Positions 4,674 to 21,583 are shown, counted from the first letter of the stretch. The stretch is 64,000 bases of DNA from Escherichia coli (GCF_003334385.1 NZ_QOWN01000016.1); one strand, 5' to 3'. A program made the numbers and translations. The notes: generated from the letters alone by a model not told the origin.

Positions 4674-5189
<516 letters not shown>

Positions 5190-5991: not shown

Positions 5992-6630
5992 ATGGCTGTC
6001 GCTGCCAACAAACGTTCGGTAATGACGCTGTTTTCCGGTCCTACTGACATCTATAGCCATCAGGTCCGCATTGTGCTGGCTGAGAAAGGTGTAAGTTTCG
6101 AGATCGAACACGTGGAAAAGGACAATCCGCCTCAGGATCTGATTGACCTCAACCCGAATCAGAGCGTTCCGACCCTGGTGGATCGTGAGCTGACCCTGTG
6201 GGAATCTCGCATCATTATGGAATATCTGGATGAGCGTTTCCCGCATCCGCCACTGATGCCTGTTTACCCGGTAGCTCGCGGTGAAAGCCGTCTGTACATG
6301 CATCGCATCGAAAAAGACTGGTACACGCTGATGAACACCATCATCAACGGTTCAGCTTCTGAAGCAGATGCCGCACGTAAGCAACTGCGCGAAGAACTGC
6401 TGGCGATTGCGCCGGTCTTCGGTCAGAAGCCGTACTTCCTGAGCGATGAGTTCAGCCTGGTCGATTGCTATCTTGCTCCGCTGCTGTGGCGTCTGCCGCA
6501 ACTGGGCATCGAGTTCAGCGGCCCGGGTGCGAAAGAGCTGAAAGGCTATATGACCCGCGTCTTTGAGCGTGACTCTTTCCTTGCTTCTTTAACTGAAGCA
6601 GAACGTGAAATGCGTCTGGGCCGGAGTTAA
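5992..6630 (+). CDS. sspA: stringent starvation protein A (GST-like, RNAP-associated)
   Basis: 212-aa ORF; recognised sequence; operon with sspB. Confidence 0.95.
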   Translation: MAVAANKRSVMTLFSGPTDIYSHQVRIVLAEKGVSFEIEHVEKDNPPQDLIDLNPNQSVPTLVDRELTLWESRIIMEYLDERFPHPPLMPVYPVARGESRLYMHRIEKDWYTLMNTIINGSASEADAARKQLREELLAIAPVFGQKPYFLSDEFSLVDCYLAPLLWRLPQLGIEFSGPGAKELKGYMTRVFERDSFLASLTEAEREMRLGRS

Positions 6631-13065: not shown

Positions 13066-14398
<1,333 letters not shown>

Positions 14399-14416
14399 AA
14401 CTTAGTTCGTTTTAAA

Positions 14417-14444
14417 GATTCTGCAGACACTGTCTGCAGAATTC
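14417..14444. repeat. 28-bp near-perfect palindrome (solo copy) between convergent yhcH and yhcG
   Basis: GATTCTGCAGACACTGTCTGCAGAATTC; 19 bp after yhcH stop and 13 bp before yhcG stop codon; same family as the copies inside yhcG and after gltD. Confidence 0.8.
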
Positions 14445-14457
14445 GAAACCGCTGAAA

Positions 14458-15585
14458 TTAACGGCGTCTATAGCCTTCCTCTAGCACCGCCTGTGTTCGA
14501 ACGAGTTCATCTGCGAGTCGTTTCTCATCAGGTAGTTGCATCTTATATTCGCTTGCCAGAACGGTGTTAGGCAAACCTGCCAGAGCATAATGCGCTTCTC
14601 CGGCTCCTTTCTCTGCACAGAGAACCAGACCGATGGGCGGATTTTCATCCGGTAGCGTCCAGTGCTCTTTGGCGTAGTTGAGATACATATTCATCTGTCC
14701 GGCATCGCTATAGCTGAATTTGCCCACTTTTAGATCGACGATTAGCAGGCAGCGTAAACGGCGGTGGAAAAACAGCAGATCGACACGAAACCAGTTGTCA
14801 TCAATGCGTAACCTTCGCTGCCGACCAACAAAGGCAAAATCATCCCCAAGTTCCAGCATGAAATCCATCAGGTGGTTGATCAGCGCCTCCTCAAAATCGG
14901 ATTCTGAATATTCATCTTTCAATTCCAGAAATTCGAGCACAAAGGGATCGCGTATCGCCTGTTGCGGAAGAATATGCGTCTCGGCAGGAGCGTGTTGTTG
15001 CAGCATGGCTGATTTGTCATGTGACAGTAGTGTCCGCTCATAAAACTGGGTCGCAATTTGCCGCTCTAGCTGGCGAACAGACCAGCCACAGCGGAGCGTC
15101 TCTTTTTCATAAAAGCTGCGGGCGTCAGCGTTTTTAACGGAAAGTAAACGGACGTAGGTGGACCTGGGCAAGGGGAAAGATTTGGCAGACAGCGTCTGCC
15201 AAATCTTTGCCGATGGGAATTCTGCAGACGGTGTCTGCGGAATTCCCAATGGTGTTAATTCGCCAGACATTGTCTGGCGAATTTCAACATGTTGAAAAAA
15301 GAGGTAAAAAAGCCTCATTTGGCGTAAGTTTTTTGCAGAGAACCCACGCTTATACCTTAGACATAAATCCTTTGATAGTCGCTTGATTAGCTGCGCACCA
15401 TACGCAGCCCTGGCCTCGCCACCTTGTTCAAATTCGACAATTCGTCGGCCAATTTCCTGGTACGTCGCGGTCATTAACGCGTTAACGCTACGTACCGTTT
15501 CCGTCCGGGCGCTATCGACCAGATGAATAATACCGTCGTGGATTTGCTGGTAGCCTGCTGTGGTTCCTTCTGAGAGCGATTCCAT
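14458..15585 (-). CDS. yhcG: DUF1016-family protein with PD-(D/E)xK nuclease-like C-terminal domain
   Basis: 375-aa ORF; C-terminal ...RVDLLFF...LLIVDLKVGK resembles a D...(D/E)xK nuclease core; contains in-frame palindromic repeats. Confidence 0.85.
   Translation of the reverse strand: MESLSEGTTAGYQQIHDGIIHLVDSARTETVRSVNALMTATYQEIGRRIVEFEQGGEARAAYGAQLIKRLSKDLCLRYKRGFSAKNLRQMRLFYLFFQHVEIRQTMSGELTPLGIPQTPSAEFPSAKIWQTLSAKSFPLPRSTYVRLLSVKNADARSFYEKETLRCGWSVRQLERQIATQFYERTLLSHDKSAMLQQHAPAETHILPQQAIRDPFVLEFLELKDEYSESDFEEALINHLMDFMLELGDDFAFVGRQRRLRIDDNWFRVDLLFFHRRLRCLLIVDLKVGKFSYSDAGQMNMYLNYAKEHWTLPDENPPIGLVLCAEKGAGEAHYALAGLPNTVLASEYKMQLPDEKRLADELVRTQAVLEEGYRRR
15180..15283. repeat. three tandem 39-bp units, each with a ~25-33-bp palindrome, in frame within yhcG
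   Basis: ATTTGGCAGACAGCGTCTGCCAAAT (15180-15204), GGGAATTCTGCAGACGGTGTCTGCGGAATTCCC (15215-15247), AATTCGCCAGACATTGTCTGGCGAATT (15257-15283); encode IWQTLSAK / IPQTPSAE / IRQTMSGE on the minus strand. Confidence 0.85.
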
Positions 15586-15769
15586 TATCTGTCCCTTTAT
15601 ATGGAGCTAAGTTGAATAATGGAATGAGCTATACTCTGGGGGGTGAGCACTGAACAATTAAGAACAGCGTATTACATTTACTTTCCCCAAGATATGCGAA
15701 GAGCTTTCCTGAAACATTAACCGATCGTATAAAACGAATGCCTGATAGTACTCCTGTCCGGCATTGTTA

Positions 15770-16486
15770 TCACAAGTAGACTACGCTTATCACAGCTTTC
15801 CCATCAAGTTCGATTTTTTCTGAACCGCCTAAATCATTCGCGATAGATGCGCTCACCTGAAGCGGTATAATGGCGTTCGTTACAGGAGTTGGGGTTGTTT
15901 CACCTGGTTTTACAAAGGTGTAATAATAGCTTTGATCGACTGCAAGCGGATAAGCGGTGAGCGTTTGCCATGCTCTTTTTTGCCCTGTTATGACGGCATC
16001 TGCACCTGCTATTGATACAGCTAACGTCTGGCTACCATTGCTGGCACTAATGTTGTTGCTATCAATTAACACGGCATAACTACCGATATTTTTATTATCT
16101 TTTGTTTTCCCTAAGCCGAATAAGCGCGTTGTCTGGCTAATATAACCTCCGCCATTTAAGGTATATTTTACACCACTCTGACCCCCACTATCTTTTCCGG
16201 TGGTCATACTATCCATTCGTGTATCACGAGCGGTAATCGCAATGCTGGTAGCGGATTCGCAAGTTATAGTCATATTAATATTACGTGTTCCAATCTGTGT
16301 GTAGTGCTGCGTTGAAAGTCTATTGACTGAATGACTACCGAAGTTAACAACTCCGCCGTTGCTTAGTATTGGAGTACAAGCTGCAGCTTCCAGAGTCACC
16401 TTAACGTCAATTGATACTCTATCAGCGGCTTGCGCTGACATGGCAAAAAAGGCACTTCCGGCAATCAGTAATTTTACATTGTTCAT
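15770..16486 (-). CDS. yhcF: fimbrial-like protein (DUF1120 family), secreted
   Basis: 238-aa ORF with signal peptide MNNVKLLIAGSAFFAMSAQA; paralogous to GltF; last gene of the chaperone-usher cluster. Confidence 0.8.
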   Translation of the reverse strand: MNNVKLLIAGSAFFAMSAQAADRVSIDVKVTLEAAACTPILSNGGVVNFGSHSVNRLSTQHYTQIGTRNINMTITCESATSIAITARDTRMDSMTTGKDSGGQSGVKYTLNGGGYISQTTRLFGLGKTKDNKNIGSYAVLIDSNNISASNGSQTLAVSIAGADAVITGQKRAWQTLTAYPLAVDQSYYYTFVKPGETTPTPVTNAIIPLQVSASIANDLGGSEKIELDGKAVISVVYL

Positions 16487-17034
16487 TTTGCCTCCACCAG
16501 GACCGTCAGATTGCCTGTAATATCTGTCATGTCGGTTAGTTCCCCTTCATCCTTAAAAGCTGGAGCCATTGTCAGTGTGAGGCTAACGCTTTTACCGCTA
16601 TCAATTACCACTTCTTGACCATTTTGCATAAACACCAGCCAATTATTGGGGGAAGTACTAATTGATGCTGTTCCTGTGCTGCCCGGATTGTCATTTTTGC
16701 CACTGGCTAACGCCAGGTCGAGATTGTTACTACCTGAAAATGCATCGCTGGCGATCAGATTTAATGAACCATTCGGGCCAAATCCAAATCCGTTGTTGGA
16801 AATATTAGCGGTATTCAACTGAACACGAATATGAGCGTCCTGATCGCATTGCATTACCAGCGTGATTGTTCTGTCTGCTAATTGTGTTGTTTTACCCCGG
16901 TCAACTTGGCGCATGGCAGCACTTCGTTTGCCATAGTCGATATTTTGTATGCTACTGGAGATATTACACTCTGCCTGAGCGGCCATGGCGAAGTTCAGCA
17001 GCAGGCATCCTGTTATTATCCGTTTCATTGGCAC
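16483..17034 (-). CDS. yhcE: fimbrial-like secreted protein, apparently intact
   Basis: 183-aa ORF with signal peptide (..LLLNFAMAAQA); overlaps yhcD stop and yhcF start; no IS sequence present. Confidence 0.75.
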   Translation of the reverse strand: MPMKRIITGCLLLNFAMAAQAECNISSSIQNIDYGKRSAAMRQVDRGKTTQLADRTITLVMQCDQDAHIRVQLNTANISNNGFGFGPNGSLNLIASDAFSGSNNLDLALASGKNDNPGSTGTASISTSPNNWLVFMQNGQEVVIDSGKSVSLTLTMAPAFKDEGELTDMTDITGNLTVLVEAK

Positions 17035-19406
17035 TCTCCTGTTGCTGTCTCATAGAACACATCTTTTGGTGCATCTTCTGGGAATGTAAGGTGAATACGG
17101 CATGATTGCTGCTCATCTTTTATATCTAGCACCATGTCCGGTTTGATGTTATTGAGGAATACAACACCGTCATCCACTGATGTTGTCAGATAGTTGCCTT
17201 CACTATCTTCAATCGCAACGCCTCTGGGCAGTTTTTTGCCGTCGGAAAGTGTGATATTGAGTAATGCACGGCGTTGTGTTATCGCACTGAATCCGACTTT
17301 CCCTACTGCACCACGGCCTTGTTTGATCATTTTTGTGCCGTTACCGATATCGACATTTTTTGGCAAGCTGGCGGTATCGATCTCAACTCCTGATGTTCGC
17401 CACGACTGGATTGATGGAATGACGGCATTACCCCGAAAATCTGTCCATACTGGGCCTGCCTGAGATGTAATTCTGACACCTGCAATATTGTTATCCATTT
17501 TTGCGATGGCGAAAGTGTCATTGATAGTCCACGGTGAAAAGGTCACTCCCTGATCATGTACGGCAATACCACCTGACATCGTACCGTTGTAAGTACGGCT
17601 ATCACTGCCGCTTGCTCCTGCGGCAAGGCTGACTTGGGTGTAATGGAGATTGGAACTGATACTGCCGTTCAAGCTCGTTTCACGTTCGTCGTGATCTCGT
17701 TCAGCATTCACATAGTAGGACATCTCATCTGAGACGACTCCCATGACACCAGTACCATAGTGGGTTTTATGATCGTCATGGCGAGTATACAGTGTGGCGG
17801 TGTTTGATCTGCCAAATGGAATACTGATGTTGACGTAGAACAGATCACCATCGTCTTCATTATTTTCTGAAGCACTAAGTTGATGCTGCCAGTTGACGGA
17901 AACCGTGGCGTGTTTGAACGCTTTGTTCCAGTTAATATTAAGGTTGCTTGAGTCATTGTCACCGTCGTAACTATATGTTTTATAGCCACTGATGTTGAAA
18001 CCACCCAGAATGGAGTTAGACCAGTTTAAACCAAGCGCATAAGTGCTTTTAGTCGGATCGGTATAATCATCATCAATCGCTTCAGACAGTTCGCGATAAT
18101 GGCGATCAGATCGAGTGAGGCTGGTTGTTAGCCCAAGTGAAAATGGGAGATTGTAGTTCGCGTCAAGACGATATTTCTGTCCTTGCAGTGAGTCTTTCGT
18201 ATCCTGCGATGTACTAATTTGGCTGCTCACTGTTAAATCGGGCAGGGGAACCAGACTCGACCGGATTGATGCCGCCTGATAATTTTCTGCTACGATAACG
18301 CCGCCGTTCATTGCACTCCAGCGTGTCAGATTCCATCCGCTCGATGCACTAATTACCCAAGGTGATTCGTCATAGTCATCGTCTACCCGCCCTATCGCGA
18401 AGCGATAACCCTGGAAGCTTTCTACATGCTGATTAAACAGGGTGGAGGGAACAATATAGTTGTGCGAACTACCGTCTGTTTCGACAACGGTGACATTAAG
18501 ATCACTATTACCATTGCGAACAGGTACATCAGGGATAGTGAATGCGCCCGCAGGAACCAGAATGGAATGAATTAAAACTCCTTGTTGACGAATCTCGACA
18601 CGAGCCTGAGAGGTGTTGGCTATACCAGTAACTTGCACACCACTGCCGCTGGTTTGCAATGCGTTGTCCGGTGCGATTTCGATACCGTAAATACTGGCTC
18701 CTTCCAACACGCTATTATTGAGGTTAACTTCACCTGCTCGCATGAGTGTTTTAAGATCTGTAAAGGTACGTTGAAGGTAGGTTGACGAGTTCTGGTTACT
18801 GAATGTGCCATTTGTTTGTGTAAGGAACTGATGGCTGCGTAACATCCAGTCATTAATATTAATCCCGCCTTCAAGTGCAGCCTGGGAGTAGTCCGAACTC
18901 CCATTAGAAAATTCTGCACGGCTGCTCATCAGAGAGTAGTTTAGCAGCGCAGCTGTTCCACCAGTTGCTGCGTTTGTGAGATCCAACCCTATGGGAATGA
19001 TCGCCTGTGGTGAAACGATAATATCTAACGCTTCCTGGTTAGGTAATGGTGTGATTGTGGTACCCGGGTAGGACAATATATAGTCGTAACAGCCATTTTT
19101 TTCTTCAGAAGGAATTTTTAAACCGGCTTGTTGCAGAAATGCCTGATCAAGACAAATGTCGCCATTTTCATCAAAGCGCGTAGCAATGTTGCCTTTTTTT
19201 TCGCCATTTACTGATACTATCAGTGAATATTCACCTGGCAAAAAACGGGCTGAACGGGAAAAATAATGCGATATATTAGGATCTACACCTAGTGATTTTA
19301 ATGTTTCCCGATCAAAATCAACAGCGGCAATCTCTATACCATCTGCATTGGCTGGGGGAGAAAAGGCAAAACCAATGGTGTAGGCCAGTAACGTTTTTTT
19401 TAACAT
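17025..19406 (-). CDS. yhcD: fimbrial outer membrane usher protein
   Basis: ORF 17025..19424 (799 aa); likely start at MLKKTLLAYTIGFAFSPPANA (793 aa); usher-sized, between chaperone and subunit genes. Confidence 0.88.
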   Translation of the reverse strand: MLKKTLLAYTIGFAFSPPANADGIEIAAVDFDRETLKSLGVDPNISHYFSRSARFLPGEYSLIVSVNGEKKGNIATRFDENGDICLDQAFLQQAGLKIPSEEKNGCYDYILSYPGTTITPLPNQEALDIIVSPQAIIPIGLDLTNAATGGTAALLNYSLMSSRAEFSNGSSDYSQAALEGGININDWMLRSHQFLTQTNGTFSNQNSSTYLQRTFTDLKTLMRAGEVNLNNSVLEGASIYGIEIAPDNALQTSGSGVQVTGIANTSQARVEIRQQGVLIHSILVPAGAFTIPDVPVRNGNSDLNVTVVETDGSSHNYIVPSTLFNQHVESFQGYRFAIGRVDDDYDESPWVISASSGWNLTRWSAMNGGVIVAENYQAASIRSSLVPLPDLTVSSQISTSQDTKDSLQGQKYRLDANYNLPFSLGLTTSLTRSDRHYRELSEAIDDDYTDPTKSTYALGLNWSNSILGGFNISGYKTYSYDGDNDSSNLNINWNKAFKHATVSVNWQHQLSASENNEDDGDLFYVNISIPFGRSNTATLYTRHDDHKTHYGTGVMGVVSDEMSYYVNAERDHDERETSLNGSISSNLHYTQVSLAAGASGSDSRTYNGTMSGGIAVHDQGVTFSPWTINDTFAIAKMDNNIAGVRITSQAGPVWTDFRGNAVIPSIQSWRTSGVEIDTASLPKNVDIGNGTKMIKQGRGAVGKVGFSAITQRRALLNITLSDGKKLPRGVAIEDSEGNYLTTSVDDGVVFLNNIKPDMVLDIKDEQQSCRIHLTFPEDAPKDVFYETATGECQ

Positions 19407-19426
19407 CCTTGTCGCTCCAGGCAAAG

Positions 19427-20101
19427 TTATTTTAAGTCAGTGACATATTTATTACCGCGATAACCATATCGGCTGGCTGGGTAAAACTCGACTTTTGTAT
19501 CCGTAGCGTTTGTTAATGCAGTAGTTGTACTGGTGTGTGGTAGAAAATAGGTCTTATTTATAGCCCCCGTTTTTCCTGAAGGGAGCGTTTTAAATTGTAA
19601 GGTCATACGAACGACATAATTACTGGGGTTGCTAATCTCAATTTGGTCGCCATTTTTACGCCATTCCAGGAATTTCCAGGTCTCTCGCTCTTCCGGCAGG
19701 GAAGCCGGGTGGATCAGTACAGGTAGATCCTGACGAATTGAAACAGTAACTCTGCTGCTCTTGTCATCTTTTGGTGGAATACCTTCGAACGTTACGCGTT
19801 TCAGCTCTTCTGATTGCAGAGGAACAGTCGCCTGAAGTAAAAATCGAACCTGTTGTACTTGACCGGCTTCAACACGAATAACGGGCTGAGTCGGGATTAA
19901 ACGAATTGATTTATTGCTTTCAGGCAAATCAACAATGGTGGTGTAAAGCAATGAAGGATGATCATCTGTATTCTTAATATTAATACTAGCTTCACCACGC
20001 TTTTCATCAACCAGCAATACTGATGTTTCAGGAACCATCCCTGTGGCTAAGGTATTCATTGATGTTGTTATAAATACAGTGAATGTAATGTGTCTGAGCA
20101 T
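19427..20101 (-). CDS. yhcA: fimbrial periplasmic chaperone (PapD-like)
   Basis: 224-aa ORF with signal peptide; 2 bp upstream of usher gene. Confidence 0.88.
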   Translation of the reverse strand: MLRHITFTVFITTSMNTLATGMVPETSVLLVDEKRGEASINIKNTDDHPSLLYTTIVDLPESNKSIRLIPTQPVIRVEAGQVQQVRFLLQATVPLQSEELKRVTFEGIPPKDDKSSRVTVSIRQDLPVLIHPASLPEERETWKFLEWRKNGDQIEISNPSNYVVRMTLQFKTLPSGKTGAINKTYFLPHTSTTTALTNATDTKVEFYPASRYGYRGNKYVTDLK

Positions 20102-20272
20102 TTAAATTAAAACTCCTGTAATAATGATAAATAACGCAGAAACATATTGTTAATATATGTTATGCACTGTTTGCGATGAGATTGATTAAGACAGACCATG
20201 TCATAGGGCATAATCTGTCCGAGTTATAGCTAACTGGTTAATGCGTAAAAATAAAAACTGTATTACAAGTTC

Positions 20273-21037
20273 TTATAAATACTGAACGCTGATAGTGACG
20301 TTACCATCCAGTTTGATCGTTTCATCAGAACCAAGAATAGTATTGTCATTTACCGCAGCATCAATCAGTAACGGGAAGGTGACCGCTGTAATGGCAACAG
20401 GTGTCAGTTCCCCTGTTTTTGCAACAGAATAACCGCGCTCGATTGCTGAGCAACTTGTCAGCGAGCAGAATGCGCCATTAGATGAGGCTTTCCATGTGGG
20501 GGTCGCTGCTGACCAGTGGTCAGTTTGAATCAGGTCGACAGGAATTTCACCTGTATCGTCCGCCGCGTGAATCCCACCATTAGACCTGTCAATACCAATG
20601 GATGCAGCGCCAATTTTTTGTCCATTAGGCGCAGAACCTAAACCAAAGGCGTTTTTCGTTCCCTTCATATCTACGAGAGTATCATAAGCTTTTTCAATAT
20701 AGGATGTGTCGTTTAACGCTACAATGGTCGACTGACGGTTATCCTTGGAGGTTACAGCAATTAGCGTTGGTGCTGTGCAGGTTATATTTAATGTGCTGTT
20801 TTTGCGGCCCAGTTGAACCAGTTTATTACTTTTACCGGTCGGATTCAGCGCACTGTTATGATGTTTCCCATAGTCAACAATGCCGCCGCCCGTAACAACT
20901 GGGGTACATGCACCAGGGGTATACTCGCCGATGATAGTTAATTCTGTATCAGTTGAATCTGTTGCCATGGCACTGAATGCTGCAACAGAAAGTGCTGCAC
21001 AAATAGCAGCTGTTGTGAGGTTCTTTTTGAAAAACAT
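20273..21037 (-). CDS. gltF: GltF, periplasmic fimbrial-subunit-like protein (DUF1120)
   Basis: 254-aa ORF with signal peptide MFFKKNLTTAAICAALSVAAFSAMA; paralogous to YhcF; first gene of the chaperone-usher cluster. Confidence 0.85.
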   Translation of the reverse strand: MFFKKNLTTAAICAALSVAAFSAMATDSTDTELTIIGEYTPGACTPVVTGGGIVDYGKHHNSALNPTGKSNKLVQLGRKNSTLNITCTAPTLIAVTSKDNRQSTIVALNDTSYIEKAYDTLVDMKGTKNAFGLGSAPNGQKIGAASIGIDRSNGGIHAADDTGEIPVDLIQTDHWSAATPTWKASSNGAFCSLTSCSAIERGYSVAKTGELTPVAITAVTFPLLIDAAVNDNTILGSDETIKLDGNVTISVQYL

Positions 21038-21555
21038 ATGAACATATCCTTAATAACAAATTTATTTTTTAAAATAAAAAGCTGAAGCAGTATATATATC
21101 TGTTTGTGAATGTAAATAAATAACTCGTTCAGAAATAGCCAACTTGCTGGGATGTATTTATTTAATGAATTTTATAGTTACGATCATGTGAATAATAAGG
21201 TGCTGGTGAGGTGGTTTGTGGTGATAATTATTCATTACATGAATGTTTGCGCTGAAAAATAGGAAAATATATAGATAATTAAGGATAATATATTGGTTTT
21301 TTATATTCATATTTTGTATATTAATATCGAGACAATTTACATGGAATGAAAAGACTGAATAGCTTGCAGAATCGGTATTGTCAGAGGTGTTAACAAGTAA
21401 TTGAGACGGATTGTAAATGAGAAATTGCTTGATGTGCTTCACTCATCAGACTTGGTGAACAAAGCACAATTTATTGAAAATTATCCCTATTATAGGAAAG
21501 GTCAAACGCTCATGCCGCATTTGCCAGAAAACAACGCGCACTTCGTCAGTAATTT

Positions 21556-21583
21556 GATTCGCCAGACACAGTCTGGCGAATTC
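21556..21583. repeat. 28-bp near-perfect palindrome (solo copy) immediately 3' of gltD
   Basis: GATTCGCCAGACACAGTCTGGCGAATTC; ends 13 bp before the gltD stop codon at 21597 (i.e. just downstream on the gltD strand). Confidence 0.8.

Follow-up and report, generated by a model that had tools for sequence, protein, structure and literature searches.

The nanQ-yhcG Gap and Its Palindrome

The stretch of DNA analyzed here (the "window", 64,000 nucleotides of the Escherichia coli contig NZ_QOWN01000016.1) carries nanQ, the current name of yhcH, and yhcG as convergent genes, and the 59 bp gap between their ORF ends at 14398 (nanQ/yhcH-like, + strand) and 14458 (yhcG, − strand) contains a perfect palindrome (Table 1). 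A palindrome in this gap had been described in a first-pass annotation of the sequence, and our analysis confirms it as follows: the element at 14417-14444 (GATTCTGCAGACACTGTCTGCAGAATTC) has 18 nt of the gap to its left and 13 nt to its right, and its exact unit, 14418-14442, lies 19 nt past the nanQ/yhcH stop codon and 15 nt past that of yhcG. The parallel that had been drawn with a copy after gltD is also real, and with three more copies inside yhcG the palindrome family has five members at this locus (solo, three in yhcG and the gltD twin).

Table 1. Positions of the palindromes, genes and transcript features in the window.
Feature	Coordinates	Strand	Description
nanQ (yhcH)	13934..14398	+	Last gene of the nan operon (ORF and annotation); its transcript runs into the palindrome
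Solo palindrome	14418..14442	none	ATTCTGCAGACA-C-TGTCTGCAGAAT, perfect 12+1+12
Segment between the two solo palindromes	14443..21556	none	7.1 kb: yhcG, yhcF-A fimbrial genes, gltF
yhcG	14458..15585	-	DUF1016_N plus YhcG_C PD-(D/E)XK nuclease; PADLOC candidate defence gene PDC-S02
Rho-termination region	14831..14831	+	About 390 nt beyond the solo palindrome on the nan-sense strand; antisense to yhcG
In-gene copy 1	15180..15204	-	ATTTGGCAGAC...GTCTGCCAAAT, peptide IWQTLSAK
In-gene copy 2	15219..15243	-	Peptide IPQTPSAE
In-gene copy 3	15258..15282	-	ATTCGCCAGACA.TGTCTGGCGAAT, peptide IRQTMSGE
gltD mRNA 3' end	21553..21553	-	PMC7815308 supplement 1, mapped to the window
Twin solo palindrome	21557..21581	none	15 nt past the gltD stop, ATTCGCCAGACACAGTCTGGCGAAT

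As RNA, the + strand of the solo palindrome forms 11 Watson-Crick pairs and one G.U with a 3-nt loop and the − strand forms 11 pairs. Folding energies for the 59-nt gap are −22.7 kcal/mol (z = −5.5) for the + strand and −16.6 kcal/mol for the − strand. There is no T-run after the stem on either strand, the tails 3' of the stem (UCGAAACC on the + strand and CUUUAAAA on the − strand) contain no U tract, and a terminator scan finds no site at the solo palindrome in K-12. Among the features of an intrinsic terminator, the stable G+C-containing stem-loop (11-12 bp stem) is therefore present and the adjacent U tract is absent; the stable fold and the empty scan bear out the annotation's reading of a hairpin on both transcripts that is not a classical intrinsic terminator. 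The annotation's alternative of a protein-binding site is possible and finds no support in these data.

Chance is excluded as the source of the solo palindrome, since matches to its sequence exceed expectation: at up to 3 mismatches the 25-mer matches only here and at 15219 (0.00 expected), and at up to 2 mismatches its 15-nt core has 8 matches where 2.4 are expected, a number that 0 of 100 shuffles reach. A known RNA family was considered and rejected, as an Rfam search of 13800-15800 at a permissive threshold gave a best match of E = 0.14 and 23.6 bits against a gathering score of 80, and its matches are sub-threshold microRNA-type noise only. BLAST of a 34-mer found a median of 3 and a maximum of 6 places per genome, with all the listed matches at the yhcG locus and no copies on plasmids. 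The strain itself is K-12-like but not MG1655 in this region, because its yhcE region (window ~16500-21500) lacks the IS5R insertion that splits MG1655 yhcE; between the yhcF and gltD stops there are 5827 bp here and 7026 bp in NC_000913.3.

Copies of the Hairpin inside yhcG

The three in-gene copies of yhcG are arranged in tandem and in frame with a period of 39 bp, and yhcG alleles of 349, 362 and 375 amino acids differ by steps of whole 13-aa (39 bp) units. The arms of the three copies differ from one another and yet are complementary (CGC/GCG, CCG/CAG with one mismatch, and TGG/CCA), and as RNA the three units together give −67 kcal/mol (z = −12). A CRISPR-like or tandem-repeat reading was rejected, there being 3 units of 39 bp that are all in frame within one ORF. 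Copy 2 at 15219 is the nearest in-gene relative of the solo copy within this strain (89%), and the flanking GAATTC that had been thought common to the solo and intragenic copies is one that the solo copy has in common with copy 2 only. The arms of copy 3 are the same as those of the gltD-side copy and of the copy in strain CFT073. The homology between the solo flanks and the in-gene spacers (9/15 flank bases) is too weak to support the copying of a full 39 bp unit to the solo site.

Read from their first base, both strands of the solo palindrome encode I-L-Q-T-L/V-S-A-E (codons ATT CTG CAG ACA C/GTG TCT GCA GAA). On the − strand this reading frame is the frame of the yhcG stop codon, and in P0021 (391 aa), a natural yhcG stop-loss variant, the solo palindrome is translated in frame (window 14399-14460) and 21 residues are added; we give this placement little weight, because chance alone would produce it in 1 of 3 cases. 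In some E. coli yhcG is annotated as a pseudogene with an internal stop (L004 1858-2985; L250 2620-3747), and the solo palindrome of those strains, a CTCCAG/CTGGAG variant, is still perfect. A compensatory variant of the solo palindrome, ATTCTCCAGACAGTGTCTGGAGAAT, is present in other E. coli.

A Hairpin Common to DUF1016 Genes

The in-gene palindromes belong to a family with a 25-nt pattern, ATT-N5-GACAnTGTC-N5-AAT, in which the arms are complementary. We used an 11-sequence alignment to retrieve 79 DUF1016 loci from GTDB genomes (Proteobacteria, Acidobacteria, Chloroflexota, Planctomycetota, Cyanobacteria, Bacteroidota, Nitrospirae, Methanoperedens and a nanoarchaeon) and scored each 25-nt window in them as a palindrome when at least 10 of its 12 pairs were complementary. 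By this measure a palindrome in frame 0, located 60-450 nt from the start of the gene, is present once or more in 67 of the 79 loci, and the density is 1.19 per kb within the genes (99 in 83 kb) versus 0.18 per kb in the flanks (95 in 540 kb). Requiring perfect arms of at least 9 nt reduces the loci with an in-gene palindrome to 13, and E. coli locus L007, whose in-gene copies are imperfect, is not among them. The family consensus is ATT nnn CAG ACA nTG TCT Gnn nAA T. YhcG has 21,241 cluster representatives at E ≤ 0.001, and its distant members (37-47% identity) carry from 1 to about 7 like motifs in the same place, for example IGQTLSDQ, ICQTLSGK, IRQPVAAE and ISETLSRK. We found no published description of a family-wide DUF1016/YhcG hairpin in the open-access literature.

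The solo palindrome fits this pattern with 12/12 pairs and aligns without gaps to 90 in-gene copies; its location differs, as it starts 15 nt past the stop codon and not in the linker between DUF1016_N and YhcG_C. It is a copy, lying outside any gene, of the in-frame hairpin of DUF1016 genes.

The arms of the family covary. In an ungapped alignment of the 90 in-gene copies (from 67 loci) and the three E. coli solo types, changes on both sides are seen in 12 of 13 pairs, and there are 223 double-change cells compared with 70.9 ± 7.7 in shuffled alignments and 22-51 when the partner position is slid; the copies were picked by palindromicity, which inflates the paired percentage, and the independent evidence is the enrichment at one position in the gene. 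Pairing fixes synonymous codons in the DUF1016 palindromes, those of high-GC genomes included. In the 90 copies, T occupies position 3 of the unit in 74 and C in a single one, and C never occurs at position 12, nor G at position 24. Amino acids also shift to preserve pairing, with Q replaced by E, S, A, P or Y and a matched change at S-x-K/E. About 93% of the copies have C or G as their centre base, the pattern that loop inversion would produce. When the apical pair is excluded, the sense-strand mismatches of the in-gene copies comprise 22 A.C versus 11 G.T, and because they display no tolerance of sense-RNA wobble the constraint looks to be at the DNA level or two-stranded.

What does this constraint mean for the protein? 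In the AlphaFold model the peptide encoded by the palindromes (residues 105-130) is coil with pLDDT below 50, the helical N domain spans residues 7-96 and the nuclease domain residues 141-374, so the palindrome is predicted to sit in a disordered interdomain linker of DUF1016 proteins. The sequence of this linker is dictated by a DNA palindrome, its codons being fixed against genomic GC bias. A nucleic-acid constraint is thus exposed in a very large uncharacterised nuclease family that PADLOC lists as a candidate defence gene, and it offers a first concrete handle on what YhcG proteins may recognise. The family-wide coding hairpin, the frame shared with the yhcG stop, and the borders of a 7 kb polymorphism and the restriction to Escherichia described below all go beyond what the first-pass annotation contained.

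Transcript 3' Ends at the Locus

Term-seq data contain a "primary" gltD 3' end at MG1655 3360660 (+) (Adams et al. 2021, PMC7815308 supplement 1). We calibrated the 61-nt context given in the Term-seq rows on the row for the ArcZ terminator and on the gltD stop at 3360616, which puts this RNA end 4 nt beyond the twin's stem; its tail is CAAA and there is no U tract (PMC7815308). It has been reported that in E. coli the mRNAs terminated by Rho have their ends just beyond stable stem-loops without U tracts, that such structures protect against PNPase and RNase II, and that rut sites lie downstream (Dar and Sorek 2018, PMC6061677). By its anatomy the 3' end at the twin has the signature of a protective 3' stem-loop, and the twin fits the Dar and Sorek class.

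For yhcH and yhcG no 3' end is listed in PMC7815308 supplement 1, which covers growth in LB or M63-glucose with no added sialic acid. The solo palindrome is itself a stable stem-loop without a U tract just past a coding sequence. The nan operon, we assume, was uninduced in those LB and M63-glucose cultures. On the nan-sense strand a Rho-termination region is recorded at MG1655 3368581 (−) with a Rho score of 4.39 (PMC7815308 supplement 2), its read counts being 215 then 21 in untreated cells and 147 then 63 with bicyclomycin (PMC7815308), so Rho-dependent termination occurs downstream of the solo palindrome at the coarse resolution of 800 nt read windows. In anatomy and context the solo copy would thus fit the protective stem-loop class, and the Term-seq end at the twin together with this downstream Rho region makes a 3'-end protective role for it plausible; against this, the Rho region could reflect termination that is unrelated to the hairpin.

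The noncoding RNA G0-10703 (window 15586-15771, +), which is divergent from yhcG, has a very strong Term-seq 3' end at MG1655 3367641 (−), about window 15771 (PMC7815308 supplement 1). It is reported to overlap the yhcG 5' UTR by 128 bp and to be induced in stationary phase (PMC7815308 supplement 1; PMC7967276).

History of the Locus in Escherichia and Its Relatives

The order gltB-gltD-yhcG, convergent with nanQ-nanK-nanE-nanT, is found in Citrobacter koseri, Pseudocitrobacter and the cryptic Escherichia clade, and because this synteny is kept in three relatives yhcG is an old resident of the locus. The solo palindrome past the yhcG stop is found in Escherichia only among the genera compared: the same gap holds REP-like or T-run hairpins in Citrobacter and Pseudocitrobacter, where the REP-like hairpin of Pseudocitrobacter occupies the orthologous gap, and neither in Salmonella. 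The Pseudocitrobacter yhcG gene has two in-gene units that are 25/25 identical to two of the E. coli solo types, one of them matching the solo copy of the present strain (25/25, read in the yhcG sense) and the other being the gltD/CFT073 solo type.

Within E. coli we distinguish four configurations of the locus. CFT073 has nanQ > PAL < gltD (configuration A, PAL being the palindrome); K-12 has nanQ > PAL < yhcG < yhcFEDA < gltF, PAL < gltD (B); in Ec387 yhcG breaks off precisely at the first base of in-gene copy 1, where a 470 bp insert takes over (C); and O157 has nanQ > PAL < yhcG < gltD (D). Presence of the element at the same position in other strains, which had been posed as a check on the original observation, is borne out by 3,705 of 5,426 complete genomes that have the yhcG 3' end with the solo copy; 946 have configuration A, and the K-12 gltF-PAL-gltD junction occurs in 1,233 of the 5,426.

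The 946 configuration A genomes lack a 7.1 kb segment and have one palindrome left between nanQ and gltD. CFT073 matches the nanQ side of K-12 up to the palindrome and the gltD side of K-12 from the palindrome on; homology between K-12 and CFT073/Nissle begins exactly at the twin palindrome of gltD, and the only sequence common to all three junctions is the palindrome. We regard configuration A as the probable product of a palindrome-to-palindrome deletion from a B-like ancestor, because the gltD flank gcgaggtaacaat is present in A and B and not in D; that the 7 kb event was a deletion, and not a gain, is read from just this shared flank. The work accounts in this way for the loss of yhcG, the yhc fimbrial genes and gltF from B2-type E. 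coli.

Across seven Escherichia genomes all the variation in the 59 bp gap is inside the palindrome, and it consists of one compensatory pair (G-C to C-G), the centre base (C/G) and one apical base. In the B2 strains, whose locus has no yhcG, the palindrome that separates nanQ from gltD is perfect and measures 14+1+14. The CFT073 stem has the partly U-rich sequences TTTTATA and TTTATTGTT on its flanks, and a terminator scan of that genome finds no site at the palindrome.

Two further observations concern these junctions. The Ec387-type insert (L002 4150-4621; also in L003) takes the place of the solo palindrome and of the 3' two-thirds of yhcG, and it contains a 101-aa ORF that is annotated as "transposase" (WP_000639208.1) and has no Pfam, NCBIfam or PADLOC match, so that the ORF could not be tied to a hairpin-using transposase. 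Where no palindrome follows gltD (L006 4210-4255, L090 and L089; configuration D and its relatives), another hairpin comes after the stop, CAGCGCCG...CGGCGCTG with AAATTC behind it, so the structure at the gltD 3' end has been swapped between lineages.

Solo Copies in Other Taxa

We scanned viral and metagenome contigs for exact matches to the pattern ATTNNNCAGACNNNGTCTGNNNAAT. The viral contigs contain 41 sites, of which 23 are inside DUF1016 ORFs and 18 are outside in total (with adjacent sites not separated), and 120 metagenome loci contain 135 sites, 89 of them inside DUF1016 ORFs, 6 adjacent to one and 40 in loci with no DUF1016 ORF. Complementarity at the unspecified N positions is 3/3 in 88 of the metagenome sites and 2/3 in 34, and because 3/3 would arise by chance with a frequency of 1/64, nearly all of the metagenome matches are true family members. 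Leaving out sites 25 nt or less from a locus end, we count 173 pooled sites, and 64 of them fall outside any detectable DUF1016 ORF. T- or A-runs are found beside 5 of these 64 solo copies, and the 3' ends of genes are not a consistent location for them. Some solo copies are in tandem, and some are much longer perfect palindromes (49 nt in L131).

In three metagenome loci (L211, L152 and L147) fragments of DUF1016 genes stop at or beside the palindrome. In the viral contig IMG/VR 2534681820_000001 (L126), identical palindrome-bearing stretches at 4740-4764 and 6062-6086 bracket a 1.3 kb cassette of two overlapping small ORFs of 176 and 126 amino acids. Judged by sequence, the 176-aa ORF looks Panacea/SocA-like and an ORF downstream looks like a tyrosine integrase; there is no DUF1016 gene within the fetched locus. 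A 9 kb high-GC locus of the uncultured bacterium Loclat_bin-10883 (L064) has six family-type palindromes outside its two DUF1016 paralogues (at 1372, 2577, 3267, 3579, 6226 and 7697), which include identical pairs as well as copies about 300-400 nt upstream of each paralogue.

Interpretation of the Solo Palindrome

Our preferred explanation, in which we have moderate confidence, is that the solo palindrome is a displaced copy of the yhcG hairpin that serves as an RNA 3'-end stem-loop and is at the same time the recombination-prone DNA palindrome behind the 7 kb loss. One palindrome unit, without recognisable flanking homology, would have reached the nanQ-yhcG gap in the Escherichia lineage. 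In transcripts of the nan operon and of yhcG it would fold into a stem of 11-12 bp without a U tract; transcription would pass through it and be stopped downstream, at least partly by Rho, and 3'-to-5' exonucleases would then trim the RNA back to the stem, so that the mRNA 3' end would be both defined and protected. In DNA, exchange with the twin after gltD would have cost about 950 genomes their yhcG, yhc fimbrial genes and gltF. We infer a stabilizing role at the solo copy from, among the above, its occupying the site of a terminator-like or REP hairpin in other genera, and for the recombination mechanism we point to the Ec387-type gene and the three metagenome DUF1016 genes that are truncated at or next to the palindrome. 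If correct, this would offer a case open to experiment in which a coding hairpin has been put to new use as an mRNA 3' cap, and it would explain an unannotated element at the end of a sialic-acid operon. Against this explanation stand the lack of a listed 3' end at this copy in PMC7815308, the mismatch pattern of the in-gene copies and the inconsistent placement of solo copies in other taxa. The outer ATT/AAT and inner GACAnTGTC are conserved across phyla and are not needed for a generic block to exonucleases, which suggests that a specific factor recognises the element, and the compensatory changes could stem from quasi-palindrome template switching instead of selection.

Both of these points have their counterpart in other explanations. 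The factor might be YhcG itself, with the element its putative cognate cis site, a hairpin or cruciform in DNA or RNA that DUF1016 proteins recognise; in-gene copies would then serve autoregulation or self-marking, and solo copies would be target or boundary sites for the gain, loss and exchange of cassettes. Conservation of ATT and GACAnTGTC across phyla while the middle 5 bp covary freely is a combination of sequence and structure that resembles a recognition element, and the co-occurrence with one gene family (89/135 metagenome and 23/41 viral sites inside DUF1016 ORFs), the solo copies that border variable segments (the E. coli 7 kb and the two-gene cassette of L126), the DUF1016 fragments broken at the palindrome and the missing sense-RNA wobble bias all agree with it. 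However, 946 E. coli genomes keep a perfect solo palindrome with yhcG absent from the locus, and no close copy was found at the nanQ end elsewhere; moreover, for 40 of 135 metagenome sites the fetched locus contains no DUF1016 ORF, and the nuclease would need to accept three different middle sequences in one gene. We therefore think it unlikely that the element is the cognate site of YhcG in this sense. A broader proposal, which we put forward tentatively as slightly less doubtful than the cognate site, is that of a cis element that spans phyla, has not been described before and co-evolves with DUF1016/YhcG (PDC-S02): a hairpin or cruciform read by sequence and structure alike, present in 1 to about 7 in-frame copies in the gene's own disordered linker and also solo, on which the nuclease or a partner would act. 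If it is true, solo copies like 14418-14442 would function as targets or boundaries, in autoregulation, self-marking or the gain and loss of nearby cassettes, over and above any capping of RNA 3' ends.

The template-switching point leads to the opposite view, namely that the solo palindrome is a functionless scrap of the yhcG repeat that a local rearrangement left behind and whose symmetry is maintained by quasi-palindrome template-switch "correction" as the DNA is replicated. The E. coli copies keep to the locus, with no more than 6 BLAST places in any genome and no plasmid among them; Citrobacter, Salmonella and Pseudocitrobacter all lack the solo copy; and the gap varies within the palindrome alone, centre C/G flips and a symmetric double change included. 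A mutational hotspot with self-templated repair would give variation of this kind, and quasi-palindrome mutagenesis is an established mechanism. A scrap would not be expected to coincide, as the twin does, with a mapped RNA 3' end, to persist from the cryptic Escherichia clade through E. coli (3705/5426 genomes), to stand where other genera have a REP-like or T-run hairpin, or to be kept and even extended as it is in B2 strains, and we consider this explanation improbable too. A classical bidirectional intrinsic (Rho-independent) terminator common to the convergent genes is by far the least probable of the explanations weighed here. The stem is stable, contains G+C and stands between convergent stop codons, and its flanks in CFT073 are partly U-rich; but K-12 has no T-run on either strand, the scan is negative in both K-12 and CFT073, the tail at the mapped 3' end of the twin is CAAA, read-through to the Rho region about 390 nt downstream is on record, and T- or A-runs accompany just 5 of 64 solo copies elsewhere.

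Comparison with Known Elements

The 3' stem-loops of Dar and Sorek (PMC6061677) are the nearest parallel to the preferred role in RNA: like them the palindrome is stable, lies past a stop codon without a U tract and has a Rho signal downstream, and its twin has a precise transcript end. Those stem-loops are mutually unrelated in sequence, whereas this one is a copy of a neighbouring gene's coding hairpin and a perfect DNA palindrome that recurs at the locus and at recombination junctions. REP/BIME elements are likewise extragenic palindromes found in convergent gaps, and they can stabilise upstream mRNA. REP elements number hundreds per genome, and this palindrome, which has no such high copy number, occupies at most 6 places per genome and has parent copies in frame inside a gene; it is also not known to resemble the REP consensus.

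Rickettsia palindromic elements offer a precedent for palindromic DNA that is tolerated in frame in coding sequence and encodes a structurally minor peptide. They are about 100-150 bp long and scattered through many unrelated genes of one genus; in contrast, the present unit has 25 nt, one conserved position, arm covariation and a single gene family across phyla, and the listed E. coli copies are at one locus and not dispersed as insertions in unrelated genes. Quasi-palindrome template-switch mutagenesis would explain the symmetric double changes and the centre flips without selection, but it is a process and not an element, and it leaves the retention at one position in about 21,000 clusters unexplained. 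In dif/pdif modules and integron attC sites, too, short inverted-repeat sites border accessory segments and loss of the segment leaves one site. Unlike those sites, the palindrome has a centre of 1-3 nt and not 6-8 bp and no similarity to dif or attC, and there is no recombinase gene, tyrosine recombinases included, at the E. coli locus. The conserved core GAC-NNN-GTC is built like an interrupted type II restriction site, such as the Tth111I-type GACNNNGTC, and this resemblance may be a coincidence.
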